Source of the DNA: Verrucomicrobiota bacterium
GTDB taxonomy: Bacteria; Verrucomicrobiota; Verrucomicrobiia; Limisphaerales; Palsa-1400
Reading direction: 5' to 3'
Length of the DNA stretch: 53,019 bases
Assembly: GCA_049510745.1 (NCBI GenBank)
Contig: JBEKYR010000038.1
Coordinates: 1 to 53,019, forward strand
Part shown: piece by piece, positions 7,565 to 49,574 of the stretch
How positions within the stretch are numbered: the stretch's first letter is position 1
Layout: each line of letters starts with the position of its first letter
The notes under the pieces: model-generated
The model's input: only the letters and a program-made list of their open reading frames with translations
Told to the model about the DNA's origin: nothing
The model's database searches: none
Program-made: the position numbers and the translations under genes

Positions 7565-7640
7565 CTGCGGCATCGCTGCAAAGGCCCGATTTTCGATCTC
7601 ATGTCAGTCCCAAATCCTAAGAACCGTTGCAGTACATCCC

Positions 7641-7691
7641 GGGGAGCGCACGCGCCCTCGCGTGCAGCGGTCGGCGCCCCCGCCGACCGCT
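7641..7691. repeat. REP-like double hairpin
   Basis: GCACGCG-ccct-CGCGTGC (7648-7665) abutting AGCGGTCGGCG-cccc-CGCCGACCGCT (7666-7691). Confidence 0.6.
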
Positions 7692-7812
7692 TCTTCGCTC
7701 GCCACGCCGCCCGCCGCCCCATCCATTGGACAAAAGTTTGCACAGCGCCCTTTTCCCTGTCGGGGGTTTTTCCCTTGATTATTCGGCGTCAGAGCTTTAC
7801 TCAAGGCGCAGA

Positions 7813-9069: not shown

Positions 9070-9071
9070 TT

Positions 9072-9608: not shown

Positions 9609-10460
9609 AGTGAAGTGAAGGTGAAGGGGTCGGTGAAGGGGTCGGTCCTAGGAAATGGGTCGTGAAGAGGTCGGTCCTATGAAATTGGTAAAGCGGCGGG
9701 TCGGGGGTCGGTCCTAGGAAATTGGTAAAGTGGTAAGGGAGTCGCCCATCGGCTCGCCCGCTTTTTAAGTTTTCTCGGTGATTTCAGCGAACGCGGCGGC
9801 GGCTCAAACAATCGGTTTTTCCCTGATTCGCTTTTTGGACCGGCCAAAACATCCTGGTTATCCTGTAAATCCCGCAAAGGGGTCGGTTCCTAGCATGTCA
9901 ACATTTTATGCTTCGCAGGGGTCACCGCAATGATCGCCCGATTCTTAAGTTTTCTCGTTGATTTCAGCGAACGCGGCGACGGCTCGCTTTTTGGACCGGC
10001 CAAAACATCCTGCTTATCCTGTAGATCCTGTCCAAAATTCCCCGCCCCCTTTTTCCGTGTATTCCGAGTATTCCGTGGTCAACATCGCCCCCGCCATTCC
10101 GCACCCTCATAAATTCACTGATTCAAACCTCACTCATTCTCCTACGATTCCGACTCTGCAATTTTCCGGCAAAAAGCCCTTGACAAGTTCCATAACACAG
10201 TGGTATTTCTTCCTTCGATGACGCCAAATCGTCACATCGGTCAAGGCCGGCTTCGGCGCCAGGCGCTTTGCGCTTCCCGCGCAATCCCTTCGGCGACGGC
10301 GGATTCGTCCCACTGGTCCGATTGGTCCCTTTGGCCCCCCAAATCAAACCAAATCAGACTAAATCAGACTAAATCAAACCCCAAACAACAGGGGGGGAGG
10401 GGGGCCAAAACGGAGCAAGACGGACTAAAACTGAGTAAAACTGAGTAAAACCGAGTACTT
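9609..10460. repeat. Composite non-coding repeat field
   Basis: About 7 GGGTCGG(TCCTAGGAAATTGGTAAAG) copies, a ~95-bp direct repeat (9754-9872 / 9934-10028), 9-mer triads and 10-mer tandems. Confidence 0.85.
10180..10209 (+). promoter_or_regulatory. Putative sigma70 promoter
   Basis: TTGACA (10180-10185), 18-nt spacer ending TGg, TATTTC (10204-10209). Confidence 0.45.
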
Positions 10461-20955: not shown

Positions 20956-21115
20956 GGGCCGTCACGCTAGAGAAATCCCGGCCCGTTGTCCACCCCGGCT
21001 TCACGGGGGCGCCTTCAGCCGCGGGGCCAGCCAGCGATGGACGAACGCAAGGGAAATCAGCGGCGCCACTCTGTTGCGGACTTGGCGTCCCGGTTCCGCT
21101 ATGATGGCCAGTGCC

Positions 21116-21784
21116 ATGCGCATATTAGTCGTTGAAGACGACAACAAGATAGCGTCCTTTGTGGTCAAAGGACTCAAGCAGGCCGGCTTCGCGGTGGACC
21201 GCTGCGCCGACGGCGAGGAGGCCCTTGTCCTGGCCGAAACCACCACTTATGACGCCGCGGTGGTCGATGTCATGCTGCCCAAACTGGATGGGTTGAGCTT
21301 CATCCAGCGATTGCGCAGCCGGAAAATCCAGGTGCCCGTCATCATCCTCAGCGCCAAGGCCTCGGTGGATGACCGGGTCCGCGGCCTGCAAGCCGGGGGG
21401 GACGATTACTTGACCAAACCGTTTGCCTTTTCCGAATTGACCGCCCGGTTGCAGGCCCTCATCCGCCGCGCCACGCATACGGCCGAACCCACCCGCCTGA
21501 TCGTCGGCGACCTGACCCTGGACCTGCTGACGCGCGAGGTCGCGCGCGCCGGCCAAAAAGTCGAGTTGCAGAGCCGCGAATTCGCCCTGCTGGAATACTT
21601 GATGCGCAACGCCGGGCGGACGGTGACCAAAACCATGATTCTCGAACACATCTTCGATTACAGCTTCGATCCCCAAACCAATGTCGTTGATGTGCTGGTG
21701 CATCGGCTGCGGGCGAAAATGGACCCGGACAAGACGCGCCTGCACACCCTCCGCGGAGTAGGATATGTTCTTCGAGCCTCGTAA
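21116..21784 (+). CDS. OmpR-family response regulator
   Basis: [31 protein letters not shown]. Confidence 0.95.
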
Positions 21785-28630: not shown

Positions 28631-30991
28631 ATGGACCAAACAGATCAAAACAAAGCTGCCTCGTCAAACGCCTTGGATACGCGTGTCCAGCAGTCCCTGC
28701 GGACTTGCTATGAATCGCTCTTGAAACGCGGTGAACTGTTGACGAAGGAACGTCTTTCCGAATGTTACGCGCTTTTCCGGGAGCGTTTCGGCCCGGATCG
28801 TCTCAAAGGTCTGGACGGCGAGGTGCTGTTGAACACCATGCACGCACACGGCAGCCAAGACAGCCTTGTGTATTGGCTGGAATTTAAGAGCGACGCCGAA
28901 TTTCCTACCCGCCAGTTCGGCAGTATCTCTGGCGGCAGTGCGCTCAAATTCGGACTTTATAAAAGCAAGGATTCCGGCGAATGGATGGCTGGCCATCCGT
29001 CCAACCAAATCACGTTGCCGATAGCCGAGGCCATCGCCATCGCGCGGAAACACCGCGACCAGTTGGTCACCGCCGTGGCCGTGATTCAGGATTTACCCGC
29101 CGGAGCCGACGATCAGGCATACCTGGCCTTGCAGAATAAACTGGACGAGGTTGCACCGGATGTTTGCCGTTTGGCTTGGGGCCACAAATATGTAAGCCTA
29201 CTTTTCCCGGACAAGCTGGACGATTTTCACGCCGAATATTTCCAGCGGCATAATCTCATTAAATTGCTTCAACTGCCGCCCTCTCAGCCCGGCCTGTATG
29301 TCTCCGCAGGCCGATTTGTCAGCTTTGCCAATCAAATGGGTTGGCCCATGAATCACTTGACCGCAGCGCTCAATGAGCGAAACGGCACGCCAACCAAATA
29401 CTGGCGCATCGGCACCAAGTTGGGCGAAGGAAATAACGCACAAGATATTTGGCCAGCCATGAGAGCAGGCGGCTATGCAGCCGTTGGTTGGGCAGACTTG
29501 GGGGATTTATCCGCTGTGCTCGCTGGCGACAATGTGAAGGAAACAATCGCGGAAATGCTGATTAAGGGATACCAGTATGATGCAAATGTCGCTTCGCGCA
29601 AAGCCGGTGAAATTAGGAACTTTGCCAAGGACATGGAGGATAATGATGTAGTGCTCGCGGCGGACGGCGAAAGGATTCTCGGCATCGGTCTGGTTAAAGG
29701 CCCATACCGTTATGAGAAGACACAGCCGGAAGACGCACCGCATCGTCGCCAAGTTGAGTGGCATACGACCCCGGAATGGAGGCTGCCGGTCACGGAAGGG
29801 TTGAGAACCACGGTCTGGAAATTGCGTAAGGATGACCGGAACTTTGTCGCCGTGGAGCGCCAGTTTTTGGAACCGTCGTTGCCAGAGTCGCCCGCGCCCG
29901 CCGCACCAAAGCCGGTTCAACCAAAAACAATTAGCAAAATTGTCCGCTTGGAAGGCGTCATCCCTAGCAAATTGCAGGCGATCTTGGAACGCAAAGGCCA
30001 AGCCATTCTCTACGGCCCCCCAGGCACCGGCAAAACATATTGGGGTAAACAGACCGCCCTTGACTTGGCAGCCATCGGGGCTTTTGGGTGTCTGTATTCA
30101 GACCTCACTCTCCAACAGAAGGTGACTGTCAATGGTGACGGCTCAAATCCTGGCTTGTTACGCTGTTGCACGTTTCATCCGGCATTCGGCTATGAGGACT
30201 TTATTGAGGGCTACCGCCCGCAAAAGGGCACAGGCGGCCAGTTGATCTTTGAAAAGCGCGACGGTATTTTCAAAAAGCTCTGCCATGATGCCGCTGCTTC
30301 GGATGAAAAATTTGTTTTGCTCATTGATGAAATCAACCGTGGTGACATCCCACGCATCTTTGGTGAATTGCTGACGCTACTCGAAAAAAATAAACGCGGA
30401 CAGGAAGTGATTTTGCCTTTGTCTGGCGACAAGTTTTCCGTCCCTGCAAACGTCTTGGTTATCGGCACAATGAACACGGCCGATCGTTCAATCGCCTTGC
30501 TCGATACCGCCTTGCGCCGTCGGTTTGGATTTGTCGAGTTAATGCCAAATTCGTCCACGCTGGTCGGTGCGATTGCAGGTGAAACGATTCCGCTCGGCCA
30601 ATGGCTCGAAGCGTTGAATTCGCGTATCCGCGAACACATCGGCAAAGACGCCCGCAATTTACAAATCGGCCATGCCTACCTGATGGATGACAACGGGAAG
30701 CCAGTCACAGATTTTGCCAAGTTTTCCCGCATCATCGCCGAGGACATCATCCCGCTGCTGGAGGAATATTGTTACGAGGATTACGGCGCGCTCACGGAAA
30801 TCTTGGGCGGGGCCATGATTGATGGTGAACGACAGCGCGTGCGTGAGGAATTATTTCTGCCCGCCCGCCGTCAGGATTTGATTCAGGCTTTGCTGGCACC
30901 CACGCCAGAATTGTCAACGACGATTGAGGCCGTTGCCCAATTAACCCCAACACCGGAACCAGAGGACGAACCTGAAGAACCGGCTAAATGA
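28631..30991 (+). CDS. mcrB: McrB-family AAA+ GTPase with extended N-terminal domains
   Basis: GPPGTGKT, FHPAFGYEDFIEG, IDEINRG, MNTADRS, LRRRF, IGHAY. Confidence 0.92.
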   Translation: MDQTDQNKAASSNALDTRVQQSLRTCYESLLKRGELLTKERLSECYALFRERFGPDRLKGLDGEVLLNTMHAHGSQDSLVYWLEFKSDAEFPTRQFGSISGGSALKFGLYKSKDSGEWMAGHPSNQITLPIAEAIAIARKHRDQLVTAVAVIQDLPAGADDQAYLALQNKLDEVAPDVCRLAWGHKYVSLLFPDKLDDFHAEYFQRHNLIKLLQLPPSQPGLYVSAGRFVSFANQMGWPMNHLTAALNERNGTPTKYWRIGTKLGEGNNAQDIWPAMRAGGYAAVGWADLGDLSAVLAGDNVKETIAEMLIKGYQYDANVASRKAGEIRNFAKDMEDNDVVLAADGERILGIGLVKGPYRYEKTQPEDAPHRRQVEWHTTPEWRLPVTEGLRTTVWKLRKDDRNFVAVERQFLEPSLPESPAPAAPKPVQPKTISKIVRLEGVIPSKLQAILERKGQAILYGPPGTGKTYWGKQTALDLAAIGAFGCLYSDLTLQQKVTVNGDGSNPGLLRCCTFHPAFGYEDFIEGYRPQKGTGGQLIFEKRDGIFKKLCHDAAASDEKFVLLIDEINRGDIPRIFGELLTLLEKNKRGQEVILPLSGDKFSVPANVLVIGTMNTADRSIALLDTALRRRFGFVELMPNSSTLVGAIAGETIPLGQWLEALNSRIREHIGKDARNLQIGHAYLMDDNGKPVTDFAKFSRIIAEDIIPLLEEYCYEDYGALTEILGGAMIDGERQRVREELFLPARRQDLIQALLAPTPELSTTIEAVAQLTPTPEPEDEPEEPAK

Positions 30992-32301
30992 CCACACAGG
31001 TCGTAAATTTGACTGAATGGGAGAGACGAGAACCAAGCAAGGGTAGCCCGCTTGTGGGGCCGGTATTGGCCAACCATCCGGCCGCTCAACGCCTAGCCGA
31101 GACGCTTACCCGCGATCGCCGCATTGAAATTCTTGAACTTGCGCGTGGATTGGAATTGAGGGCGTCATCTTTCGTCGGACGTTTCGCCTTGGGCGAATTG
31201 CTCATTACGATTAAGCCCAAGATTTCCGGCGTGCCGCTAATGAATTTGCTTCGCTACGCATACCGGCTACGTCATTTGCAGTTGTTCGCCGAAGTTGGCT
31301 ATGCGACCTCACAGGCCAGTTTCGAGGATTTATTGATTCATCAGTTGGCTGCGGAATCGTCCGAATTGCTTTCCCGTGGCCTTCATCGTGATTATCTTCG
31401 CACCGAATCCATGCTCGCCAGCCTGCGCGGGCGGATTGATTTCGGTGGTTATATTCAGGTAGCCGCAAATGGTGGCGTCCCTTTGCCCTGTGTTCATTAT
31501 CCCCGCAGCGAAGACACCTGCCTGAATCAGGTTTTGCACGGCGGCTTGGAACTAGCCGCCCGGATGACGCTGGACAGTGAATTAGGCGGGCGCGTACGGC
31601 GCTTGGCCAAAAGCTTCGCCGGACGGATCACGCCGAAAAAATTAGATGCCGCCGCTTTTGCCGAAGCTTGGTATTCACTCGACCGCCGCACCAGCGCCTA
31701 CCGGCCAGCGTTGACGTTAATTCAAATGCTTCTTAATACCCACGGCGCGGCCTTGACCGACACCACTTCGCCGACTCCCGCCGCTGGATTCCTGTTTGAC
31801 ATGAATCGTTTTTTTCAGGCACTCCTTTCCCGCTTTCTTGGCGAAAACCTCATCGGCTACGAAGTTCGGGATGAACGGGTATTGCGCGGGGTTTTCACCT
31901 ACGACCCGGCCAATAATCCTCGTAATCGTCGCTCGCCGTCACTTCGTCCCGATTTTCTCGTGCTGCGCAATCACAAGGTTGAAGCCGTTCTGGATGCCAA
32001 ATATCGTGATCTTTGGGATACAAATCTGCCGCCTGAGATGTTATATCAGCTCGCGCTTTACGCTTTGGGCCAAGAGAGCGGTAATCGCAGGGCAACCATC
32101 ATTTATCCGACATTGGAAGCCGCAGCCCGTCAGCAGACCATTTTCGTCAAAGACCCACTCCGTGGCGCTTCGACGGCGCAAATCATATTGCGCCCGGTGA
32201 ACCTGCTGATACTTGACCAGCTTTTGCGTGATAAAAGCGTTCAAGCCCAGCGCAGTCGCACTGAGTTTGCCCGGTGCCTGGCATTTGGACCATCACCATA
32301 A
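30988..32301 (+). CDS. mcrC: McrC-family PD-(D/E)xK nuclease
   Basis: ATGA overlap with mcrB; FVG, LRGRID, FDMNRFFQ, RPD..LDAKY, YQL..Y. Confidence 0.9.
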   Translation: MTTQVVNLTEWERREPSKGSPLVGPVLANHPAAQRLAETLTRDRRIEILELARGLELRASSFVGRFALGELLITIKPKISGVPLMNLLRYAYRLRHLQLFAEVGYATSQASFEDLLIHQLAAESSELLSRGLHRDYLRTESMLASLRGRIDFGGYIQVAANGGVPLPCVHYPRSEDTCLNQVLHGGLELAARMTLDSELGGRVRRLAKSFAGRITPKKLDAAAFAEAWYSLDRRTSAYRPALTLIQMLLNTHGAALTDTTSPTPAAGFLFDMNRFFQALLSRFLGENLIGYEVRDERVLRGVFTYDPANNPRNRRSPSLRPDFLVLRNHKVEAVLDAKYRDLWDTNLPPEMLYQLALYALGQESGNRRATIIYPTLEAAARQQTIFVKDPLRGASTAQIILRPVNLLILDQLLRDKSVQAQRSRTEFARCLAFGPSP

Positions 32302-32366: not shown

Positions 32367-33581
32367 ATGAATAAAGGTGTTCGTTGCAAGCTCTTCGTGA
32401 TGATGGTGCTGGAGTTTGTCATTTGGGGGGCGTGGCTGCCGCTGATTTTCAGCTATCTCCCCAGCCTGGGCTTTTCCGCGTGGCAAACGGCCGCCATCCT
32501 CAACGCCTTTCCGGTCGCGGCGCTGGTGGCGATGTTTTTCAGCAATCAGTTCGCCGACCGGAATTTCGCGGCGGAGAAATTTCTGGCCTTCAGCCAGTTG
32601 GCCGGCGGGCTGGCGATGATGGGGCTGGCGTTCACGCGCGATTTCTGGACGTTCTTCGCGCTGATGCTGGCGCATTGTCTGTTGTATGTGCCGACGCTCT
32701 CCATCGTCAATTCCATCGCCTTCACCCATTTGAAGGATTCGAGGGATTTCGGATTGATCCGCATGGGGGGAACGATCGGGTGGGTGCTGGCCGCCTGGCC
32801 CCTGACGTTAATCAAGATGGACGTCAGCGACATTCGCTGGACTTACGTCATCGCCGGGATTGCCTCGCTGGTGCTGGCGGCGTTCAGTCTGGCCTTGCCG
32901 CACACGCCGCCGAAAAAGGCGGCGGCCGCGGAGGACAAATTCGCGTGGGTCGAGGCGGTGCGGTTGCTGGGCCAGCCGTTCGTGCTGGTGCTGTGGATCG
33001 TCGCTTTTGTGGATGCCTTCGTTTTGAACGCGTATTTCAACTGGGCGAGCATGTTTTTGGGCAGTCCGCAAGTGGGGATCGCGACCAAATGGATCATGCC
33101 GATCATGAGCATCGGGCAGGTGGCGGAAATACTGACGATGGCGATCCTGGCGATGACGCTCAAACGGCTGGGCTGGCGGCTGACGATGATGCTGGGAATT
33201 CTGGGACACGTCGTGCGCTTCGGGGTGTTCGCGTTTTTCCCGCAGGCGACCGCGCTCATCATTGTAGTCTTTGCGTTGCACGGCATCTGTTACGCCTTTT
33301 TCTTCGCGGCGGTCTATATATTCGTCGATGAGTATTTTCCCAAGGACGTGCGGGCCAGCGCGCAGGGCCTGTTCAACGTGATGATCCTGGGCTTGGGAGT
33401 CATCGCCGCCAACACGCTCTGTCCCTGGCTGAAGGACCGTTACACCGCCAACGGCGCGAGCGATTTTCGGAGTTTGTTCGTGATCGCCGGCGGCGTGGCG
33501 CTGGCCGCGACGATTACGCTGGCCTTGTTTTTCCATCCGCCCGGGCGCGGCGCCGCCGCGGAACAAAGCGGTGGAACATGA
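32367..33581 (+). CDS. MFS nucleoside:H+ symporter family transporter
   Basis: LEFVIWGAW, FADR, RMGGTIGW, GQVAE, LHGICY, RASAQG. Confidence 0.88.
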   Translation: MNKGVRCKLFVMMVLEFVIWGAWLPLIFSYLPSLGFSAWQTAAILNAFPVAALVAMFFSNQFADRNFAAEKFLAFSQLAGGLAMMGLAFTRDFWTFFALMLAHCLLYVPTLSIVNSIAFTHLKDSRDFGLIRMGGTIGWVLAAWPLTLIKMDVSDIRWTYVIAGIASLVLAAFSLALPHTPPKKAAAAEDKFAWVEAVRLLGQPFVLVLWIVAFVDAFVLNAYFNWASMFLGSPQVGIATKWIMPIMSIGQVAEILTMAILAMTLKRLGWRLTMMLGILGHVVRFGVFAFFPQATALIIVVFALHGICYAFFFAAVYIFVDEYFPKDVRASAQGLFNVMILGLGVIAANTLCPWLKDRYTANGASDFRSLFVIAGGVALAATITLALFFHPPGRGAAAEQSGGT

Positions 33582-34141
33582 AAGAATTCGACTCGTTACG
33601 CGGCCAACTCGACACGTATTTGCGCAAGCAACCGGTGTTGGGGAAGGGCGTCTATATCGCGCGGGGGGCGGTGGTGGTTGGGGACGTGACGCTGGGCGAG
33701 GGCGCCAGCGTGTGGTACAACGCGGTGTTGCGGGGCGACATCAACCGCATCGTGGTGGGCGCGGGGACAAATATACAGGACAACGCCGTGGTGCATCTGG
33801 CCGACGAGTTTCCGTGCCTGTTGGGCAACTATGTGACGGTCGGGCATGCGGCGATCGTTCACGCCTGCACGATTGGGGACGAATGCCTCATCGGGATGGG
33901 AGCGGTGGTGCTGGACGGGGCGGAGATAGGGCGGCAATGTTTGATTGGCGCGAGAGCGTTGATCACGCAGGAGACGAAAATCCCGGAAGGTTCGCTGGTC
34001 CTGGGCGCGCCGGCGAAAGTGGCGCGCGCCCTGACGTCGAAGGAGCGGGCCGGATTGAAGTACTGGGCGAGAAAATACGCCGCCAACGCCGCCTACTGCC
34101 TGGAACACAAGATCAACGTCGGCGGCCCGCTGCGGAGTTAG
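33578..34141 (+). CDS. Gamma carbonic anhydrase family protein
   Basis: Hexapeptide repeats; LRGD, NIQD, VH, VGH, VHAC. Confidence 0.92.
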   Translation: MKEFDSLRGQLDTYLRKQPVLGKGVYIARGAVVVGDVTLGEGASVWYNAVLRGDINRIVVGAGTNIQDNAVVHLADEFPCLLGNYVTVGHAAIVHACTIGDECLIGMGAVVLDGAEIGRQCLIGARALITQETKIPEGSLVLGAPAKVARALTSKERAGLKYWARKYAANAAYCLEHKINVGGPLRS

Positions 34142-34148
34142 TTTCCCC

Positions 34149-34216
34149 TACGCCAGGGTGATCTTGTCTTCTTTTCTGAGGGTGACGATGGCCTTTTTCC
34201 AGCGGGGGGGCGCGGC
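34149..34216 (-). repeat. Displaced copy of the rplW 3' end (att-like direct repeat, left)
   Basis: Matches 43049-43115 with 2 substitutions and 1 extra G; encodes WKKAIVTLRKEDKITLA*. Confidence 0.95.
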
Positions 34217-34253
34217 TCCGAGAACGTTGCCAGGCAAGCGGGCGAGAGAAAGT

Positions 34254-34284
34254 TCAAAGGATTTGTCGCTGGCATTTGTCGTAA
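34254..34284 (+). promoter_or_regulatory. Putative ECF sigma promoter (autoregulatory)
   Basis: TCAAAGGATTTG-N11-TGTCGTAA; same motif and spacing at 41130-41160. Confidence 0.7.
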
Positions 34285-34301
34285 GGGTGAAATAGCAAAG
34301 C

Positions 34302-34856
34302 ATGGTGGAACCGGATGAAGAGCGGGATTGGATACGCAAAAGTCAGCAAGGCGACCTCGAGGCATTTGAGGCACTCGTCAGGCGCCATCAGCGGATGATT
34401 CATTCACTGACATATCGGATGACCGGATCGCTGCCCGACGCGGAGGACTTGGCGCAGGACACGTTCCTCCAGGCCTTCCGGCAATTGAGCGGGTACCGGG
34501 CTGAAGCGCGGTTTTCCACATGGGTCTATCGCATCGCGGTGAATCTGTGTTTGAATTGGAAGCAACGCCGGAACCGGCAGGAACGCCTGCAGGCTGATTG
34601 GAGCCAGAATCAGGCAGCGTCGCGCCGTTCCGACAGCCCGGCGCTCGAGCAGGTTCAAGAGGCCTTGCTGAAATTGCCGCCCAAGCAAAGGGCGGCGGTG
34701 ATCCTGACGGCCTACGACGGGTTGAACCACGCGGAAGCGGCGCGGATTCTGGGATGTTCGGAAAGCACTGTCTCGTGGCGCGTGTTCGCCGCCCGCGCGC
34801 ACTTGAAGAAGCTCCTGGCCAATGCTCAAAGCGGGAATTTGCACCATGAAGAATAA
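34302..34856 (+). CDS. ECF RNA polymerase sigma factor
   Basis: GDLEAF, DAEDLAQDTF, FSTWVYRIAVN, LPPKQRA, EAARILG. Confidence 0.94.
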   Translation: MVEPDEERDWIRKSQQGDLEAFEALVRRHQRMIHSLTYRMTGSLPDAEDLAQDTFLQAFRQLSGYRAEARFSTWVYRIAVNLCLNWKQRRNRQERLQADWSQNQAASRRSDSPALEQVQEALLKLPPKQRAAVILTAYDGLNHAEAARILGCSESTVSWRVFAARAHLKKLLANAQSGNLHHEE

Positions 34857-35457
34857 CGAACTGGATCGCCTGCTGCAATCGATTCGGGAGCCCGAACGCG
34901 CGCCGGAGTATTGGAATGAGTTTCCGAAGAAAGTAGTGGCGCATTTGCACTGGCGGGTTGGAGGGCCGTCTGGCGCGGATCCGAGGCCGGCGCCGGGAAT
35001 AAGAAGGCTGGCGGGTTGGACACTAGGACTGGCCACAAGCGGTGTCATCGTCGCGCTGGCGGTGGTGTTATGGCGGGAGCATGAAAGCCGGCCGGAGGCG
35101 TCGCAAATGCTCCGCATGGGAAAATACTACCAGGAGATCGAGGCGCTGTTTCCCAACCAGCTTGAGACGATCGTTTTTGACCCGCAGGGGACGCATCTGG
35201 TTCTGGCGCCGGAGGCGGATGTGCCGGCTTCGCCGCCGCTTTACGTGCGCATTTGCGACGGCAAAAACTGTTCCTCGTTCGTGACATTCAGCGGTCAGGA
35301 GATTCAACTGGCGGGGCAAAAGATGACCGTGCTGTCAGACGCGCATGGCGGCATTATTCTGACGGGTGATCGGTTTCTCTGGTCGAGCGCGGAGCGGATT
35401 GATGGGGGCAGCCACTGGCAAATCGAAGCGCGGAATCTAAGCTCGATTCCGCTCTGA
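34846..35457 (+). CDS. Putative single-TM anti-sigma factor
   Basis: Overlaps the ECF gene; short N-terminus with YW motif, one TM, periplasmic domain. Confidence 0.6.
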   Translation: MKNNELDRLLQSIREPERAPEYWNEFPKKVVAHLHWRVGGPSGADPRPAPGIRRLAGWTLGLATSGVIVALAVVLWREHESRPEASQMLRMGKYYQEIEALFPNQLETIVFDPQGTHLVLAPEADVPASPPLYVRICDGKNCSSFVTFSGQEIQLAGQKMTVLSDAHGGIILTGDRFLWSSAERIDGGSHWQIEARNLSSIPL

Positions 35458-35461
35458 GCAG

Positions 35462-38400
35462 ATGAAAAGGGCTTTCTTAATTCTGGCCATTTTAATTTTT
35501 GCGCCGCCGCTGCCGGCTCAAACCAACGAGCGGGTCCGGCTGGCGTTGATTGCCGATTCGGACGAGGCTTCCGCCGCCCTGGATGTTTTGACGGTCGAAC
35601 TTTCGGGCGATAAAAAAGTGGAGTTGCTGGAGCGAAACGAGATCCAAAAGGTTTATCGTGAGCAGGGCTTGTCGGCGCTGAACCAGGATTATTTGAAACT
35701 GGGCCGAATCCTCGGCGCGGACGGATTGCTGGTCGTCCATCTGTCCAAAGAGGGAGATTCCGCGCTGTTGAGCCTGCGGTTGGTGGCGGTGAAACCGGGG
35801 ATCGCGCTGGATCAACATGAATATCCGTGGCCCTTGGATGATCCGGGGCAGTGGAGCAGTCTGGTCGCCGCGCAATTCCGGTCCTGGTTTCCCAAATTGG
35901 CCGTCTTGCCCCAGGACGCCGTGCCGATTTCGATTTTAAATCTCCGCTCGGCGCTGGCGTCCGCCGGTTCCGAGGCGCTGGAGCGGGAATTGACCTCATT
36001 GCTCTACAATCGGCTGGTGAAAGAAAGGGACATTTTTGTGCTCGAACGGCGCCGAATGGAACTGCTGACGGAGGAAAAGGAACTGAACAATGCCACGGAG
36101 AGTTCCTTTTGGAACGGGAGTTTTCTGATAGAAGGTGTGATTGACAAGCAGGGGTTCAACCCGAACAAGCTCAGCCTCGACATCCAGCTCACGCCGCGGA
36201 ACACAAAGGAAATTGTTTCCCTGGCCGTGACCGGTCCGCGCACCAATTTGCCGGCGGTGATAAACGATCTGGCGCTGCGGATTCTGGCCGCGGTCAAATT
36301 GGAGGGCGCCCCCACGAAGTGGGATCCCCAAGCTGAGGCTGAGCGATATTATGCCGAGGCAAAGTGGATGTTCAAATGGCATCTGTTCCAGGAGGCCAAG
36401 GCGGCGTCTGAGGCGGCCTGGGCATTGGGCCAAAAATCGCGGGAAGTGGCGGACCTAAGGATCAGGGCCTATGAGGGATCCGCCGGCGATCCGGGAATGT
36501 GCGTCATTCAGAACGAAATCCATCACGTCGTCTTTGGCGAGCAGTTCAAAGCGCGCCATCATGATCCCAGCCAGATAGCCGCTTTTGCCAAGGCGCCCGC
36601 GCCGGATCGGTTTGCAGACATGGTGGGCGCCCTGGAACTTTACGCCGAGGCCTTTCGGTTGTTTGTTGCTCCCGGGCAAAAACCGGATGCCGCCTGGCTG
36701 AACTTGGGAGTGCAACTGGTCGATCGCGCGTCGCAGTGGTTGCGGTATCATTATTTTACGGTCGAGGCCCGTTCGGGCCAGGAAGGCAGGATTGAGGAAG
36801 CAAAACGATTGTGCCGCGAAATAGCCGGGACGCTGGCCGGCAACCCGGACCTTGCCGCGGCAGACACCAATCACGCGATTTTGACAATCCAGGCCGAACA
36901 TTCGGCGTTTTGGATGGAGACGCCGGAGGAGGGTTTGGAGATTTATCGCAAACTGGTGGAGGCAGGTCAATGGCCGCTGGTCCGCCGCCGCTTTTTTAAC
37001 GCGGAATCGTTTCACCTCAGCCTGCAAGGGCACCAATACGGAATTACCCGCCGCGGAATTTCAGACGGGATGCAAGAGTATTACAATGGGCCGCCGGGGC
37101 ACCTGGCCAATTTAGCCAATCCGTGCCTGGCCGGGTGGAAGTGGGAAGACCGAAAACGCGGGCCGGCCGTCTGGAGCGGCTTTATTGACGAACTGTGTCG
37201 TTCCTCCAAGCCATTGACCCTGCTTGAAGGCCGGATATTGCAATGTTCTTACTCGTGGTCGGAAGAGGATTTTGAAAACAATTTGAGGCAGCTTCTCTCT
37301 TTGGTGCAGGAGCAAGAGGAGGCCCTGGTTGCCGCCGGCCTGGCGGAAACACTCTTGAATGATTTACGCACCCTCGTTGAGGGCCGAAAGGACAGCCTCA
37401 CGGACGCGCGCCGCGCCCGGATCAAGGACGAGGTCTGGGCGGACTTTGAACGACAATTCAAGGAATTCCTCAAACAAAAGGAGCGCGCGTTAAGGGATCT
37501 GAAGGACCAGCAAAAGCGTCTGACTATGCAGGACGAAAGGAAGAATTACCTTGAGACCCAGACTAATTTTGACTTTATGTCCTTCGCAAAGATTTTGCAC
37601 CAAGCTGACTATACCCCTGGGGAAGCAAACGAACTGCTGCCATTGCTGACCAATTACGCAATGCGCATAAGCAGCAATAACGCTGCCACAACCGCGACCC
37701 AATTGGAGCGTAGGCGGAAGGAAGTGAACCAAAAGCAAGCTAAGTTTTGGATTGGCACATTGGAAAATAAATTAACCGCGGTCATTTCGGGTCTGCCGCC
37801 CCGAACCAACGCGGCGCCGTTGCTGGCGACCGCCAAAACGCCTTCTCCTGCGGCCGCGGTTGCGAAGCCAGGTGAAGCCCCGGCGCCGCCGGGGGCGAAA
37901 TCTCCCTTGGCAACGGCAGCCGTAAAGCCGCTCAGTGTCAGCCGCTTTTGGCAAATCCCAATTCCGGATGATCTTTCAACGCCCGACACGGCCAATGGGG
38001 GTATCCCTTCTCCGTTCCAAGGCCGGGCTTCTCTGCGTCAAATTGCCTGGGCTTGCTACCGTGATGGAAAATTGTGGACGGAGGTCCGATACGATCAACT
38101 TGGGATTGCGGGACGGGCTGATTTTTTTGGCATCGACTTAACGACATTCGCGGCTGAGAAAATTTCATTTGAAGACCAAAGGTTTTCCCTGCCCAACCTG
38201 ATCTCCGGTGATCGCGCGGGAGCGTTTGAAGTGCATCGGGGGTATCTTTATCTTTCGCTCCAAGACTCTGTGAGCAGGTGTTCATTGAAAGATGGTTCCT
38301 GGAATCAATTTCCAGTGCCCGCAACGGGCAAAATCGGGGTGGCGCGTTTGGGTGACCGGCTGTTCTTCACCACGGAAAACAGCATTCTCGAATATAACCC

Positions 38401-39796
38401 GGACGGATCATTCAGGGTGCTCGCCAGCAGCCGTCGCCAGCCCGCCGCGAGCTTGCTGGACACGGTGGAGGATTACGGATCACCCCATCTTTTTCTCACT
38501 GCCGACCGCACGCTGCATGTTTGCGTCGGCAATGACGTCTATGCCTTCTCGTCCGCCACGAACGATTGGATACATATTGCCACGGTGCCAAACATGAAGA
38601 CTTCCTTCTATTTTGCGTGGGATGACGGTTTCCTAGCTTCGGTCGGCTCCTTGGGCGGTCAATGGTGGGGGATGTTGGGCACGCTCTCTTGCCCGGAACC
38701 TTTGTTCCGGAAGCCACCGCGTCGCGGACAGGTGATCGCCCCCCGCCTGGGTCCCCAACAGGAAAAGCGTCCGACGCCACGGTGGCCGAGTTCCATGCCA
38801 AGCACCGATGTTTGCTCCGAAGGCGACCAAATATGGTTTTTGGTGGATCCCAGCGAATCCAAGTTCGGCGCCTATGCCAAAGGTCAAATGCAACCCGCGC
38901 AACAAGAGACAGACCAGGGCTTGTCGCTGGTTGGATTCAAAGTCGGCGAAGAAAAACCCATCAAGGTACCACTGCTGTTGGCCAAGGATGGATTCACGAC
39001 CGTGAGGGGGCAGCCCAACCGGCCGGTCGGTCCGCGGTGGAATCAGTGGATTCTTCAGTGGACACCCCAAGGGTTGATGGCCACCCATAACGGTGTTCCT
39101 GGATTCTGGCTCATTCCCAAAGCTGAATTGGATCAAGCCGTTGAATCCAATTACGCTCAACGTCGTCTGGAACAGGACGCGTTAAAGGCCCAGCATGAAA
39201 AATGGCGCCAGGAACTGCTCGCCGCTTACGACCGGAATCACAACGGGGTCTTCGAGCCGGAGGAAAAGGAAGCCATGCTGGACGACCCGCATTTTCTGGA
39301 ATTGTCGCTTCCAGACATCGACGCCAACCACAATGGACTGTTGGACGCGGAGGAACTGCGCTTTTTCGACGCCAACACAAACGGCGTGCTCGAACCCCAA
39401 GAGCAGGCAGCCATTGAGCAAACCTTGTCTTTGTTTGCCGACAAACTCATGGCCACGCTTGACCCGGACGAGGAGGGCAAGATTGACCCAGCCGACCTTC
39501 CAGCAGAACTATACATTCCAAGTCCTTTCCCGCAAAGGATCGGACCAAGGTTAATAAATCCGCTGGGTGAATACCGTGATGGTAGAATCGGCCATGATGA
39601 AGTGGTCGACCTCATGCAATCTTACCTGATCGGCAGCACGCGCGTTCGAGGCAACCCTGCTATTCCCCGCCGGCCGCCGTTTGAAAGGCCACGACAGGCT
39701 ATGGATGTCAAGTCGTTGTTCAAAGAGCGGGTGGAGACGTATTGGCGATCCTCCAAGCCGCTCAACAGCAGCCAGGCTGCGCCGGCCAAGCCTTGA
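35462..39796 (+). CDS. Large secreted protein with CsgG-like N-terminal repeats and EF-hand-like motifs
   Basis: Signal peptide; LLERNEIQKVYREQ and VLERRRMELL; DRNHNGVFEPEE, DANHNGLLDAEE, DANTNGVLEPQE, DPDEEGKIDPAD. Confidence 0.65.
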   Translation: MKRAFLILAILIFAPPLPAQTNERVRLALIADSDEASAALDVLTVELSGDKKVELLERNEIQKVYREQGLSALNQDYLKLGRILGADGLLVVHLSKEGDSALLSLRLVAVKPGIALDQHEYPWPLDDPGQWSSLVAAQFRSWFPKLAVLPQDAVPISILNLRSALASAGSEALERELTSLLYNRLVKERDIFVLERRRMELLTEEKELNNATESSFWNGSFLIEGVIDKQGFNPNKLSLDIQLTPRNTKEIVSLAVTGPRTNLPAVINDLALRILAAVKLEGAPTKWDPQAEAERYYAEAKWMFKWHLFQEAKAASEAAWALGQKSREVADLRIRAYEGSAGDPGMCVIQNEIHHVVFGEQFKARHHDPSQIAAFAKAPAPDRFADMVGALELYAEAFRLFVAPGQKPDAAWLNLGVQLVDRASQWLRYHYFTVEARSGQEGRIEEAKRLCREIAGTLAGNPDLAAADTNHAILTIQAEHSAFWMETPEEGLEIYRKLVEAGQWPLVRRRFFNAESFHLSLQGHQYGITRRGISDGMQEYYNGPPGHLANLANPCLAGWKWEDRKRGPAVWSGFIDELCRSSKPLTLLEGRILQCSYSWSEEDFENNLRQLLSLVQEQEEALVAAGLAETLLNDLRTLVEGRKDSLTDARRARIKDEVWADFERQFKEFLKQKERALRDLKDQQKRLTMQDERKNYLETQTNFDFMSFAKILHQADYTPGEANELLPLLTNYAMRISSNNAATTATQLERRRKEVNQKQAKFWIGTLENKLTAVISGLPPRTNAAPLLATAKTPSPAAAVAKPGEAPAPPGAKSPLATAAVKPLSVSRFWQIPIPDDLSTPDTANGGIPSPFQGRASLRQIAWACYRDGKLWTEVRYDQLGIAGRADFFGIDLTTFAAEKISFEDQRFSLPNLISGDRAGAFEVHRGYLYLSLQDSVSRCSLKDGSWNQFPVPATGKIGVARLGDRLFFTTENSILEYNPDGSFRVLASSRRQPAASLLDTVEDYGSPHLFLTADRTLHVCVGNDVYAFSSATNDWIHIATVPNMKTSFYFAWDDGFLASVGSLGGQWWGMLGTLSCPEPLFRKPPRRGQVIAPRLGPQQEKRPTPRWPSSMPSTDVCSEGDQIWFLVDPSESKFGAYAKGQMQPAQQETDQGLSLVGFKVGEEKPIKVPLLLAKDGFTTVRGQPNRPVGPRWNQWILQWTPQGLMATHNGVPGFWLIPKAELDQAVESNYAQRRLEQDALKAQHEKWRQELLAAYDRNHNGVFEPEEKEAMLDDPHFLELSLPDIDANHNGLLDAEELRFFDANTNGVLEPQEQAAIEQTLSLFADKLMATLDPDEEGKIDPADLPAELYIPSPFPQRIGPRLINPLGEYRDGRIGHDEVVDLMQSYLIGSTRVRGNPAIPRRPPFERPRQAMDVKSLFKERVETYWRSSKPLNSSQAAPAKP

Positions 39797-39802
39797 GAGA
39801 CC

Positions 39803-41089
39803 ATGAATCCGAAACCTCACCTGCGAATCAACGTCCGCCACGTTCTCCTGATTCTGCTCCTTTTCATGGTTTCCGCCGGGCGCGCTCAACCAACCATTGC
39901 GACCAAGAATTCTTCCGCGGCAAACCCGCTTGCTCTTTCGTCAAATGTCGCCTCTGCCCGGTGGACGAGCATGTCCTCACCCGAACTTCTCCGGGCGGCT
40001 GAAGCTGGAGAGGCCCAGGCTCAATACTTCTATTGGTCCCGCCAAGAGAAGGAGGCGAATGAGGAAGAGGGGCGTTTATACGACGAAATCTTTGCCCTGG
40101 AGCATCGATTGAAAGGGGACGAACAACAGTGGGCAGAAGCCAGGTGGGGGGCCGGCGCGCGAGTTGAACTGGGCAAAGTGCCCCAATACGGGGATAGCGG
40201 CGCCCAAATCTCTCTTGACAGGCAGAAGGTGGATCAAGTGATTCAACGTGCGGTCAAAGCGTTTGAATGGCTGGAAAGATCGGCAAACCAGGGACTCCCC
40301 TTGGCCGAATATGACGCCGCCATCCGCTATCTTGGAGAGAGCGGCTGGATGATCATTAAGATGGACGAGTCGAAAGGCCTCAGTTTCTTGCAGCGGGCGG
40401 CTGATCACGGATGGGCAGCCGCGCAGTATAAACTGGGTGAGGCCTGCCTCGTCGGTGAGTTTTTGCCCCGGGACATCCCGAAAGCAATCGCATACCTGCA
40501 AAAGGCAGCCGACCAGGGCGGGCCCCGCTCACAATATACCCTTGCGCAATTATACGCCAACGGCGAGGGCGTTCCGCGCAGCGATGCCGACTCGCCCGTG
40601 GCGTTGCTCCGCAAGTCAGCCGGAAGCGGCAATCATCTTGCCTTGCATGCGCTGGCTGATCGTTACCGCACGGGCCTGGGGGTGCCGGTTGACTATGTCC
40701 GATCCATTCGCCTTTACCAGGCCGCGCTCGAAGCCGAAGCGAAGATAAGCTCGTATCCGCAAGGGCGCGACGCGGACATATTCCAATTCCTTGACGGCAA
40801 TCTCGATCCCAGGCCCGGTTTCAACGGGGACTTTATAAACTTCGCCAAGGTCTTGAGCATTTACCTCAAAGCGACCGAGCGAGAGGACGCCGCGGCCATG
40901 AGCCAACTGGGCGATTGGTATGTCGCCGGACGATTTGTGCCCAAAGATTTGGTTCAAGCCTGCCGCTGGTACAATCGGGCCGCGGTTCGTGGCGCTCCAG
41001 ATGCCGTCGAAAAGCGGGACCGCATGAAAGCCAGGCTGAGTTCCGATCAAATCAGACAGGCGTTGAGATCTTCCGATGAGCCGGAATAG
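39803..41089 (+). CDS. Secreted Sel1-repeat protein
   Basis: AQYKLG, KAADQG, LAQLYANGEGV, LGDWY..G..VPKD..QACRWY. Confidence 0.85.
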   Translation: MNPKPHLRINVRHVLLILLLFMVSAGRAQPTIATKNSSAANPLALSSNVASARWTSMSSPELLRAAEAGEAQAQYFYWSRQEKEANEEEGRLYDEIFALEHRLKGDEQQWAEARWGAGARVELGKVPQYGDSGAQISLDRQKVDQVIQRAVKAFEWLERSANQGLPLAEYDAAIRYLGESGWMIIKMDESKGLSFLQRAADHGWAAAQYKLGEACLVGEFLPRDIPKAIAYLQKAADQGGPRSQYTLAQLYANGEGVPRSDADSPVALLRKSAGSGNHLALHALADRYRTGLGVPVDYVRSIRLYQAALEAEAKISSYPQGRDADIFQFLDGNLDPRPGFNGDFINFAKVLSIYLKATEREDAAAMSQLGDWYVAGRFVPKDLVQACRWYNRAAVRGAPDAVEKRDRMKARLSSDQIRQALRSSDEPE

Positions 41090-41129
41090 GATTTGTTCCC
41101 ATTCACCGGATTTTCGACCATGATTTTTA

Positions 41130-41160
41130 TCAAAGGATTTGCCGGCCGGAACTGTCCTAA
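41130..41160 (+). promoter_or_regulatory. Putative ECF sigma promoter (second copy)
   Basis: TCAAAGGATTTG-N11-TGTCCTAA, 9 nt before ATG 41170. Confidence 0.7.
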
Positions 41161-41169
41161 TAGTAAGAA

Positions 41170-42003
41170 ATGAGATCGCTCAAGGCATCCATGCTGCTGG
41201 CGGCGGCCTGCTCCTGGCCGGGCCTGGCTGGCGCGCAGTTGGAAATGGTCACCAACGCCGAACCGCAGCGGCTTTTTGCCGGCCCCGGAAAACCGGTCGC
41301 CGTGGTTTTTCACAATCCGGGCCAACAAGCCTTTGAGGGCGAAGTTCGCGCGCGAGTTTTGGAAACCGGTTCGACGACGGCGGTTCGATGGAGCGACACG
41401 GCGTGGAAAAGGCTGCAAGTGCTGCCGCAGCAAACGGTGCTGGAATCCGCGCGCCTTGATTTTCCGGCGGTGAGGGCGGAGACGACGTTTCTCATTCAGT
41501 GGCTGGAAGACACAAACCGGGTCATTGGGCTGACCCAAGTATGGGTCTATCCGTCCAATCTGCTGGCGGAGTTAAAACCCCTGGCGGGCGCGGAGCCTGT
41601 GGGCATTTTTGATCCACAAAACCAAATCAAGCCGCTGCTGAAAAACCTGCAATTGCCCTTCACGGATTTGGAGATTTCCGATTTGGAAACCTTTCCGGGC
41701 AAACTTGCCCTCATCGGCCCGTTCCAATCGAGGGCGCAGATGCGCGAAGGTTTGGCGGAGCAAATCCAGACGCTCGCCAAGAAAGGCGCGGCCGTGGTCT
41801 GGCTTCAGCCGCCGCCCGAGCGGCATGACGCCATCGTGCCATCGTTCTATGCCGTGCCGGAAGGCAAAGGCGCGGTGGTGATTGTCGGGGCGGATTTGGT
41901 ATCGGGCCTGTCTGAAAACCCGCAAGCCCAACTTCATCTGGTTCAGTGTTCCCGGTTGGCGCTGAATCCAAAACCGTTCTGTCTGCCCAACCTGACGCGC
42001 TGA
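41170..42003 (+). CDS. Secreted hypothetical protein
   Basis: Signal peptide; beta-rich N-terminal half. Confidence 0.6.
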   Translation: MRSLKASMLLAAACSWPGLAGAQLEMVTNAEPQRLFAGPGKPVAVVFHNPGQQAFEGEVRARVLETGSTTAVRWSDTAWKRLQVLPQQTVLESARLDFPAVRAETTFLIQWLEDTNRVIGLTQVWVYPSNLLAELKPLAGAEPVGIFDPQNQIKPLLKNLQLPFTDLEISDLETFPGKLALIGPFQSRAQMREGLAEQIQTLAKKGAAVVWLQPPPERHDAIVPSFYAVPEGKGAVVIVGADLVSGLSENPQAQLHLVQCSRLALNPKPFCLPNLTR

Positions 42004-42023
42004 CCTTAAATCAAAAACAGATT

Positions 42024-42953
42024 ATGAAAACACGAATTCCATTGTTGCTGGCTCTGTTGTTGTCCGCGTGTGCCACTGCCCATGCGGCCGGGACCGGGGT
42101 TCTTACCGTTGCCGTCTTCGACTTCGAATCCAAGGATGAGGCTGTGCATGACCTGGGGCCGAAAGTCGCCACCCTGGTCAACGCCACTCTGTCGGCCGAA
42201 TCGAACCTGGTCACCGTTGAACGGGTGGACTTGGAAAAGGCCCTCAGCGAACAGGAACTTGGGCTGTCGGGCACCGTGTCGCCCGAGACGGCCGCCAAAG
42301 TGGGAAGCTTGACCGGGGCCAAAGTGCTGGTCACCGGCCGGGTGTTCAGAACGGACAATGAATTGATCGTGGTGGCTAAAATAATCGGCACGGAAACCAG
42401 CCGTGTGTATGGCGAAATCGTCAAAGGAGCCGTGCAGGGGTCCCTCGCCGATTTAGCCGCGAGTTTGGCGAAGAAGATTGCCGCGGACGTGGCCGAGAAA
42501 GGCGACACGCTGGTGGCAAAGGTCGAGACGCACGAGGAGCGGGTGGAAAAAATCAAAAAGGCGCTGGATGGCAAAAAGCTGCCGGCTGTTTCGGTGAAAA
42601 TTGCGGAGCAACATTTCGGGCAGCATGTCATTGACCCGGCGGCGCAAACCGAGATGTCGCTCATGTTGCAGCAATGTGGATTCACGGTGGTGGACGACAA
42701 ATCGCCGCAGAAGGCGGAGGTCGAAATCACCGGCGAGGCGCTGAGCGAGTTCGGCCTGCGCAAAGGCAACCTGCAATGCTGCCGCGCGCGCATCGAAATC
42801 AAAGTTCATGAGGTCTCCTCCGGCCAGGTTATTTCCGTGGATCGTCAGACCAGTGTGGCGGTGGATCTAAGCGAGCATATCGCGGCTAAAACCGCGCTGC
42901 AAAATGGCGCGGAGGCATTAGCGGGGCGGTTGTTTCCCAAATTGGGCAAATGA
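42024..42953 (+). CDS. CsgG/HfaB family protein
   Basis: Signal peptide; VAVFDF, VERVDLEKALSEQELG, AAKVGSLTGAKVLVTG. Confidence 0.8.
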   Translation: MKTRIPLLLALLLSACATAHAAGTGVLTVAVFDFESKDEAVHDLGPKVATLVNATLSAESNLVTVERVDLEKALSEQELGLSGTVSPETAAKVGSLTGAKVLVTGRVFRTDNELIVVAKIIGTETSRVYGEIVKGAVQGSLADLAASLAKKIAADVAEKGDTLVAKVETHEERVEKIKKALDGKKLPAVSVKIAEQHFGQHVIDPAAQTEMSLMLQQCGFTVVDDKSPQKAEVEITGEALSEFGLRKGNLQCCRARIEIKVHEVSSGQVISVDRQTSVAVDLSEHIAAKTALQNGAEALAGRLFPKLGK

Positions 42954-43047
42954 ATCAACCGCCGCGGTCTTGTCCGCCACCCCGTCATGCGGCGTAACCG
43001 CCGAATGCCGGCCGGAATGTCCGCAAAGCCCAGGTCAAACGGACGCC

Positions 43048-43329
43048 TTACGCCAGCGTGATCTTGTCTTCTTTTCTGAGGGTGACGATGGCCTTTTTCC
43101 AGTGGGGGGCGCGGCCTTCGAAAGGGGTGCGGCTGCGGCGGGCTTTGCCGCGGACGTTGAGGGTGTTGACCCTGAGCACTTTGACTTTGAACAGTTCCTG
43201 CACGGCCTGGCGGATTTCCCCCTTGTTGGCGCGGCGGTCGGCCACGACGGTGTACTGATTGTACTTCTCAGACTGGCGTGTGCCCTTTTCGGTCACGCGC
43301 ATGGTCTTGATGATTTCGTAAGAGTTCAT
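43048..43329 (-). CDS. rplW: 50S ribosomal protein L23
   Basis: TEK, ANK.EIRQAVQELFKVKV..VNT, WKKAIVTL. Confidence 0.96.
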   Translation of the reverse strand: MNSYEIIKTMRVTEKGTRQSEKYNQYTVVADRRANKGEIRQAVQELFKVKVLRVNTLNVRGKARRSRTPFEGRAPHWKKAIVTLRKEDKITLA

Positions 43330-48337: not shown

Positions 48338-48573
48338 CAGTTTTTTTGAAAAAACCAACACCACCCTGCAAAATAGGCCAAAACCGGCCTCTTTCAAGGG
48401 GCAAAAACCGCTTCCCGGACTCCACCGCCGGGAATCTGGCCCGTAATTACTTGGCGTTAATATACATGCCAATCCGGGAATGAAAAGAGAATTCTTGGAT
48501 GTCCCGTGATGACGGGACGTGGCGGCAGATTTGATTTGCTGATTTCATCCAATTGAACCACAATCTTCAAGTC

Positions 48574-48798
48574 ATGCGCGCGCCAGCCGAAAAGGAACAA
48601 GCCACCGGAGGCGTGCCGCCGGAAGCCATCCGGTTGGCGCGCTCGGCTTTGTCCAAATATCCGGATTGCTTTTGGACGCGGCGGCCCGAGGCGCCGGTGG
48701 TGGATCGGAGTGACGTTGAACTGATCGTTCGCCGGCTGCGTGAGAATGGGCAGGCTGCCGCTTGGGAAACCGCCCGCGAGATCGAAGCGTGCCTCTGA
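48574..48798 (+). CDS. Small protein, putative antitoxin
   Basis: KYPDCFW...LIVRRLRENG; overlaps the downstream NTase start; start uncertain (48553/48574). Confidence 0.6.
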   Translation: MRAPAEKEQATGGVPPEAIRLARSALSKYPDCFWTRRPEAPVVDRSDVELIVRRLRENGQAAAWETAREIEACL

Positions 48799-49574
48799 CA
48801 TCCTTCCAATCTGAAGTCCTCCGTCGGCTGGCTGGCAACCGCTCTTCGGAGAGCTATGTGGCCGGCGGCATCGCCCTCAACGCGCGCGAGAATATCCGCT
48901 GGAGCGCCGATGTGGACGTTTTTCACGACGCGGAGGAAGCGGTGATGCGTTCCAGTGAAAAGGATGTCCAAACTCTGGACCAAGCCGGATACGCCGTGCG
49001 GCGGGACATTTGGACGCCAGCCTTTCGCCGGGCGTGGGTGGCGCGCGGCGCGGACGGGGTTAAACTGGAATGGTGCCAGGATTCGGCCTGGCGATTTTTC
49101 CCCATTGAGCCGGACGATTTGCTGGGGTGGAGGCTGCACCGGTTCGACGCCTTGACCAACAAGGCTCTCGCCATGGCCGGACGGGCGGAAACGAGGGATT
49201 TGGTGGACATCGTGGCCAACGCCGCGGAGTGTCCGGTTTTCGCGCTCATTTGGGCCGCTTGCGCCAAAGACCCAGGCTACAATCCAATTCTGCTTTTTAA
49301 TCAAATGCAACGCAACTCGCGCATCAACCCCGCGGAATTACGGGAAATGGGTGCGCGTTATGAACCCCAAGCTCTGAAAGTCCGCTGGCTTGCCCTGGCT
49401 GAGGCGGCGCAGAGCCAGATCGAGCGCGCAGCAGCGGCAGGGACTGAGCCGGGAGTGGCCTTTCTCAACCCGGACGGTCGTATTGGGTGGTTCGACGTTC
49501 CGGGCTGCACCGCGCATAAAGCGGTGTTGGGTGGTTCGCTGCCGCGATTGGTGGGTGTCCACTACGGCGTTTGA
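48789..49574 (+). CDS. AbiEii-like nucleotidyltransferase
   Basis: YVAGGIALN, RWSADVDVF, NKALA..GRAETRDLVD. Confidence 0.72.
   Translation: MPLTSFQSEVLRRLAGNRSSESYVAGGIALNARENIRWSADVDVFHDAEEAVMRSSEKDVQTLDQAGYAVRRDIWTPAFRRAWVARGADGVKLEWCQDSAWRFFPIEPDDLLGWRLHRFDALTNKALAMAGRAETRDLVDIVANAAECPVFALIWAACAKDPGYNPILLFNQMQRNSRINPAELREMGARYEPQALKVRWLALAEAAQSQIERAAAAGTEPGVAFLNPDGRIGWFDVPGCTAHKAVLGGSLPRLVGVHYGV

Follow-up and report, generated by a model that had tools for sequence, protein, structure and literature searches.

A six-gene operon bracketed by a duplicated rplW 3' end in a genome of the Limisphaerales/Pedosphaerales

Duplication of the rplW 3' end around an inserted operon

The window examined here is a 53,019-bp stretch of DNA from a Verrucomicrobiota bacterium (GenBank assembly GCA_049510745.1; contig JBEKYR010000038.1; coordinates 1 to 53,019), and its subject is an operon of six genes found between two copies of the 3' end of rplW, the gene for ribosomal protein L23. 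The reading favoured for this arrangement, at a probability of about one half, is that a piece of donor DNA with a homologous gene end on it was integrated by one crossover. The genome under study, G000, is a 5.6-Mb metagenome assembly that is 94% complete, and its DNA is present in peat and wetland sequencing runs; no RNA dataset containing it was listed. C-numbers denote its contigs, other G-numbers the genomes of relatives (G001 being the congener), L-numbers fetched loci or contigs, and X3 and X4 sequencing runs. Searches of the order, Limisphaerales/Pedosphaerales, covered 401 genomes.

The rplW end occurs in direct orientation at 34146–34216 and 43046–43115 (71 alignment columns, 94.4% identity, E 2e-22), with a start-to-start spacing of 8,900 bp. 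The repeat comprises the final 23 codons of rplW plus 2 nt, the identity extending 2 nt beyond the stop codon. An earlier note made from the sequence alone had described a direct repeat of the rplW end bracketing six genes, and this was confirmed, the repeat being slightly longer (71 nt) and all four listed differences as described, namely one synonymous change in a Thr codon, one His-to-Arg change, one extra base in a G/C run, and TAG versus TAA. These differences are located at both edges of the repeat and flank an identical core of 45 bp (34158..34202; partner 43058–43102), which may be the crossover interval. The copy at 43046–43115 belongs to the intact rplW gene (43048..43329, minus strand; TAA stop at 43048–43050), the last gene of a truncated S10 operon. 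The distal, orphan copy, also on the minus strand, has a TAG stop at 34148–34150 and the one-base insertion near its inner edge. A frame running across the orphan copy (34148–34339, 64 aa) was rejected as a gene on its low coding score. The neighbouring gamma-carbonic-anhydrase-like gene (gamma-CA; 33578..34141, plus strand) is convergent; 6 nt separate its stop codon from that of the orphan rplW end.

Insertions with long target duplication have been defined, for restriction-modification (RM) cargo, as inserts of <20 kb flanked by a unique repeat of >30 bp (PMC2853133, Furuta, Abe and Kobayashi 2010, in the part of that paper available here). The rplW-end repeat is longer than 30 bp and unique in the 5.6-Mb genome, where it has two copies and all further matches are of 19 nt or less. 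The insert, at 8.8 kb, is below 20 kb and without mobility genes; no match to a restriction or modification gene was found in its six proteins. On its sequence layout the rplW insert is assigned to this structural class, though not as an RM unit.

That an assembly artefact produced the repeat-bracketed layout is hardly credible. G000 does derive from a metagenome assembly, and the X3 contigs break at the 45-bp core, with the insert contig ending inside it. However, the copies differ at four places, and a separate metagenome assembly contains the right junction (contig L086, 100%) and the left junction (contig L087, 99.98%). In run X4, which is not marked as a source, one contig passes over the left junction (33186–36227), and in X3 the depth of the insert (15.9) matches that of the flank contigs (12–18). 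Misassembly is thus not indicated as far as this can be tested. No excess indicative of an excised circle or of amplification was seen in contig depth, and as the X3 contigs lack the organism's own rplW allele, no circle was inferred from the contig end in the core.

The inserted operon and its origin

The unique insert (34217..43045; 8,829 bp, GC 0.576) carries six genes, all on the plus strand. A putative autoregulatory promoter of the extracytoplasmic function (ECF) type (34254..34280), with the core CAAAGGA followed by a GTC-type box, lies 37 nt inside the left boundary, so the insert starts just ahead of its own promoter. The first gene (34302..34856) encodes an ECF sigma factor with Sigma70_r2 and r4_2 domains, and the second (34822..35457) a protein of no matched family that is probably an anti-sigma factor, judging by its position and a membrane span. 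They are followed by genes for a 1444-aa exported protein with a CsgG-like N-terminal domain and an EF-hand-like C-terminus (35462..39796) and for a Sel1-repeat protein (39803..41089). An identity of the 1444-aa protein with XopAW was rejected (24 bits against a cut-off of 120), the match reflecting EF-hand-like repeats. A second promoter-like motif (41130..41156) precedes the last two genes, which encode a 277-aa exported protein of an unnamed family (41170..42003; Atlas cluster of 666, mostly Verrucomicrobiota) and a CsgG-like protein (41946..42953) convergent with rplW, for which no solved relative was found by sequence.

The promoter-like motif has two matches in the window and none in 100 shuffles, and its core was found upstream of homologous ECF genes in exact form in 15 of 18 cases and as a variant in the other three. 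It may define the regulon of an ECF/anti-sigma/CsgG-like system of Verrucomicrobiota. Promoter and terminator scans gave chance-level results only.

No Pfam or NCBIfam match to recombinases or transposases was found for the six insert proteins, and a tblastn search with 12 recombinases encoded in G000 gave no match (E<=0.01) in the whole window. This bears out the statement in the earlier note that the cassette contains no recombinase.

Homologues of the 277-aa protein were detected in 59 of the 401 genomes of the order. In 20 fetched loci, the genes for the ECF, anti-sigma, 277-aa and CsgG-like proteins were again found together as an operon, each time in different surroundings, and the full six-gene order was also found in G006 and G017. 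A homologous operon at locus L227 lies exactly between two copies of a 43-bp repeat, at another target upstream of a tRNA-Leu gene and without an integrase match, and at L241 another lies within a tRNA-Val island between integrase-like genes.

The third-position GC content (GC3) of all six genes is 0.65–0.72, compared with a genome 25th percentile of 0.735, a median of 0.785 and 0.81 for the flanking core genes. The congener G001 carries the operon at another location, where the proteins are 45–69% identical to those in G000, whereas the flanking core genes are 80–91% identical, indicating that the operon was not simply inherited within the genus. The best match of the anti-sigma protein in any other cluster is 52% identical. 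Given the low GC3 and the divergence from the congener, it is likely that the operon was laterally acquired from an unsampled donor.

The same observations bear on an intragenomic rearrangement, in which tandem duplication of a native segment, followed by deletions, would have brought an operon already resident in the genome to a position behind rplW, with a stub remaining of the second rplW. The presence of the operon elsewhere in the congener, the heavily scrambled synteny around rplW and gamma-CA, and second copies with internal deletions at the C59 and comM loci are compatible with such an event. However, the low GC3 of all six genes and the gap between 45–69% and 80–91% identity in the congener argue the other way, and this explanation is improbable.

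rplW as an insertion target

The earlier note proposed that rplW had served as an attachment site. An insertion that leaves rplW intact is supported, but a recombinase attachment site is not. With a degenerate pattern of the rplW end that had to match exactly, and so could miss decayed copies, matches were obtained in 295 of the 401 genomes of the order and in 29 of 31 of the family, with two matches only in G000 and G412 in the former and only in G000 and G013 in the latter. In both G412 and G013 the extra match is a nearly complete gene on a small contig, and viral contigs gave no match to the pattern. Among 30 rplW-downstream loci (3–20 kb), none has the repeat and none has gamma-CA; two include an integrase-like match, 8 and 14 kb away and without a repeat. 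No integrase family targeting the rplW end was found in the order, in the family, in viral contigs or beside rplW. Among the genomes searched, no second use of the rplW site was seen. As there is no recurrence in the order and none in viral contigs, and as equal scars occur at many unrelated genes (see below), the sequence comparisons do not support rplW as a dedicated attachment site. No report of rplW as an insertion site was found in the literature searched, which mostly did not cover subscription journals.

Removal of the cassette was predicted to place rplW beside gamma-CA. The two stops would be 6 nt apart, but this empty site was observed nowhere: rplW lies within 1.5 kb of gamma-CA in 0/21 gamma-CA loci of relatives, and the 30 rplW-downstream loci did not supply it either. 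As the closest relatives are only ~80% identical and rplW and gamma-CA have other neighbours in almost every genome, these negative results neither confirm nor refute the predicted empty site.

A different property may have made rplW available. Of 39 genomes with an rplW match, rplB follows rplW in 10 and does not in 28, including G000, with one at a contig end. The rplB gene and the rest of the cluster are found in G000 on contig C8 (around 20651–21544), behind an upstream region of their own, making rplW the end of its operon. This split of the S10 operon after rplW probably makes the insertion site tolerable.

A second alternative, rather unlikely, is that the insert is a relic resembling a cis-mobilizable element (CIME), in which the rplW 3' end would have served an element as attB; the element would have supplied a substitute end and either lost its integrase later or been integrated in trans. 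The premise of the earlier note that such elements usually sit at tRNA or tmRNA genes understates the range, as the 3' ends of the ribosomal protein genes rpsI, rpmG and rplL are att sites for integrative and conjugative elements (ICEs), integrative and mobilizable elements (IMEs), as well as integrase-less CIMEs, and integrase-less CIMEs of 1.2–13 kb are common (PMC7563491, available part). Here too att-like direct repeats lie in a conserved gene end without a recombinase. Five of six tRNA-anchored, repeat-bounded islands of G000 show no recombinase similarity, and integrases may thus be lost routinely; the operon at L241 is itself in a tRNA island, and 14 tyrosine- and two serine-recombinase matches in G000 could permit action in trans. 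However, second rplW ends are absent elsewhere in the order and family, exact-pattern searches revealed no derivation from an element family targeting the rplW end, and neither the viral contigs nor the two distant integrase-like matches supply one. In addition, a dozen other targets would each require a lost integrase of their own, and there is no room for an element remnant, as the insert is densely coding and begins 37 nt before the promoter motif.

Two tRNA islands of G000 were noted in their own right: a 57-kb island at tRNA-Arg (C13:52655–110328) and a 70-kb island at tRNA-Lys (C4:125023–195130), both with att-like repeats and no recombinase similarity.

Sibling insertions in the genome and in relatives

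Comparison of G000 with itself gave 49 unique repeat pairs on the same contig, from which 14 pairs at 13 loci were chosen by eye as insert-like; tandem paralogues, intragenic repeats, tRNA sites, comM pieces and intergenic pairs were excluded. In these 14 pairs, repeats of 36–234 bp flank inserts of 0.8–9.5 kb at unrelated genes and span 3' ends, 5' ends or gene borders. The cargo includes toxin-antitoxin pairs, putative defence genes and secreted proteins. No recombinase similarity was detected inside 12 sibling regions, the single match falling beyond the bounds of the C41 insert. Among 18 cases, neither inverted repeats nor inner ends in common were found. The rplW insert likewise has neither the terminal inverted repeats or shared ends nor the transposase of a transposon.

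Relatives have empty sites, each holding the repeat in exactly one copy, for the direct-repeat-flanked inserts at C41:36972–39670, C59:18148–22616 and C57:16775–23642, that is, for three of five loci tested in five relatives; the other two, C48:30226–33168 and C33:43783–46927, showed no synteny with the relatives. Both of these, and the remaining inserts at C23:28699–29762, C4:53745–54644, C77:2639–4563, C7:162528–163877, C24:65538–66396, C2:99821–109444 and C4:101393–102773, are direct-repeat flanked and recombinase-free. Among the excluded sequences, several comM pieces were noted at C1:278027–293637, one of them a second copy of 84% identity that has an internal deletion and whose differences are mostly synonymous (54/76).

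In 797 kb of G001, G002 and G017, nine pairs passed the filter and four had the gene-end layout. The operon and the toxin-antitoxin pairs occupy a different site in each relative. One locus of G017 (L214:2996–5041) has two toxin-antitoxin-type inserts between two convergent genes. The geneA end is followed by insert 1, then by an orphan geneB end fused directly to an orphan end of geneA, then by insert 2 and the geneB end. This double junction looks like a fossil circle junction, such as would result if part of a second allele had been circularised and had entered through a single crossover. In G004 and G046, geneA and geneB are adjacent with other spacers.

Substitution patterns in the repeat copies

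Under pure decay of one copy, the expected fraction of synonymous differences is 0.27, and under duplication of an identical sequence followed by decay and synonymous drift it is 0.43. In the G000 pairs, 35 of 67 coding differences are synonymous (p 1.5e-5 against 0.27). Two G017 pairs have 6/7 and 6/8, and the pooled value of 47/82 differs from 0.43 at p 0.007. Polarising the differences with outgroups of 75–88% identity gave mixed answers.

Proposed integration of a donor fragment by a single crossover

The reading preferred here is that the operon adjoined the rplW end in a related strain or species, and that a fragment of DNA from there would have brought this gene end along. The fragment would have been trimmed, then circularised or illegitimately joined at its far end, and would have entered by a single homologous crossover in the rplW end catalysed by the host, presumably through RecA after DNA uptake. 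The predicted product is an intact rplW, the operon and an orphan rplW end, the last of these later frameshifted. No enzyme encoded by the element would then be needed to add a self-contained, ECF-controlled operon behind rplW. Because a duplication that includes the gene end keeps the gene working, only such events would survive, and the end of the S10 operon at rplW in this lineage would make it available as a target. Of the three options that the earlier note had offered, homology-driven insertion, the third, fits best.

Several observations favour integration by a single crossover: the same kind of scar at many unrelated genes, three of which have empty sites with a single repeat copy; the bias of copy differences towards synonymous changes together with the circle-like double junction in G017; and the bracketing of a homologous operon at another target in L227. 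A precedent exists in E. coli, where 56 of 60 clones arose via trimming, recircularisation and a single crossover, with gene-end duplications of 109–950 bp (PMC3240628, available part). ComEC is present in G000 but is weak support, as ComEC is widespread. Ku was not found in the 94%-complete genome, and Ku-dependent end joining was rejected on this basis.

Other observations count against the crossover. The operon was found beside rplW, as expected of a donor, in 0/61 loci and 0/20 loci (two sets that may overlap), and the empty rplW/gamma-CA site was not found among the loci of relatives (0/30, 0/21). With 35/67 synonymous differences, the G000 pairs do not depart significantly from the 0.43 null (p 0.08), and the pooled p of 0.007 needs the two G017 pairs, which were selected after inspection. 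The C77 and C7 pairs resemble random decay, one sibling pair is identical at 56 of 56 positions, as a fresh target duplication would give, and the rplW pair itself, with three substitutions and one indel, has too few differences for a bias test. The mechanism also leaves the first arrival of the operon at a new site unexplained, and the integrase-less tRNA islands of G000 leave a decayed element as a minor possibility.

Some of these points favour a real but unlikely alternative, target duplication in break repair, in which non-homologous DNA would have been captured where the chromosome was broken, a 70-bp stretch of the recipient copied to both sides, and the copies, identical at first, later diverged. 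This would require no donor with an equal neighbourhood, fitting the negative donor searches, and it agrees with the different site of the operon and toxin-antitoxin pairs in each relative and with the fully identical sibling repeat (56/56). The available text of PMC2853133 proposes such a model for RM genes and notes that a start or stop codon frequently lies within the repeats. However, the synonymous bias and the G017 double junction count against it, the insert holds no restriction or modification gene, and the lack of a detected Ku also speaks against it.

A wider and more doubtful proposal, though a conceivable one, is that recombinase-free, additive integration of circularised chromosome fragments of relatives could be a main route of gene gain in Limisphaerales/Pedosphaerales. 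It would place toxin-antitoxin pairs and whole operons after gene ends of any kind, a few times per megabase, leave fossil circle junctions like that of G017, and may drive the scrambled gene order, including the break of S10 after rplW. No report linking direct-repeat insertions with horizontal gene transfer in Pedosphaera was found in the literature searched.

Other features of the window

An McrBC-like pair of lower GC (28631–32301) is inserted between maf and a transporter gene, 1.8 kb to the left of the repeat; a DNA search of G002 found no such pair beside the transporter gene. A low-GC stretch (7627–10028; 47–48%) has ORFs of 480 and 178 aa that match none of the families checked; short direct repeats (9640–10028) come after them. 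Upstream of rpsL, a two-gene pair (48553–49574; 81 and 270 aa, no Pfam match) is toxin-antitoxin-like in layout.

Comparison with known systems

In E. coli, the e14/icdC locus has a displaced protein-gene 3' end with several differences from the restored end, like the rplW insert, but e14 encodes its own integrase, unlike the rplW insert. Transposons of the IS1634/IS1549 type are also associated with long target duplications of variable length.

The class described in PMC2853133, as far as the available text goes, resembles the rplW insert in size, in the unique repeat, in the lack of a mobility gene and in a repeat over the stop codon that keeps the target intact, and differs in cargo, which here is ECF/CsgG-like and in the siblings includes toxin-antitoxin pairs and secreted proteins. 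For this class rplW would be a new target, as the literature searched yielded no paper on it, and the cargo is non-RM. The CIMEs covered in the available part of PMC7563491 share with it a duplicated 3' end of a ribosomal protein gene, a content of cargo only and the 1.2–13-kb size range; unlike those CIMEs, ICEs and IMEs, it has no cognate integrase family, no tandem ICE or IME and, among the genomes searched, no second use of its site. The locus also illustrates that duplication of a gene end does not by itself point to an integrase site.

Integration by one-sided homology, in the portions of PMC3240628 and PMC5361080 available here, also leaves foreign DNA flanked by a partial gene-end duplication of variable length, whereas classical homology-facilitated illegitimate recombination gives deletions, not duplications. 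The substrate in PMC3240628 was a laboratory plasmid, while the donor here is conjectural and the 70-bp duplication is shorter than the 109–950 bp seen there. As a single locus the rplW insert is of modest interest, and it is more important as a marker of many such scars in G000 and its relatives. Scars with empty sites and allele-like differences provide a test set for the mechanism of formation, a question left open in the available text of PMC2853133. As one of about a dozen similar insertions in G000 that carry no enzyme, the rplW insert looks more like a known, general kind of insertion than like a new mobile element that targets rplW.

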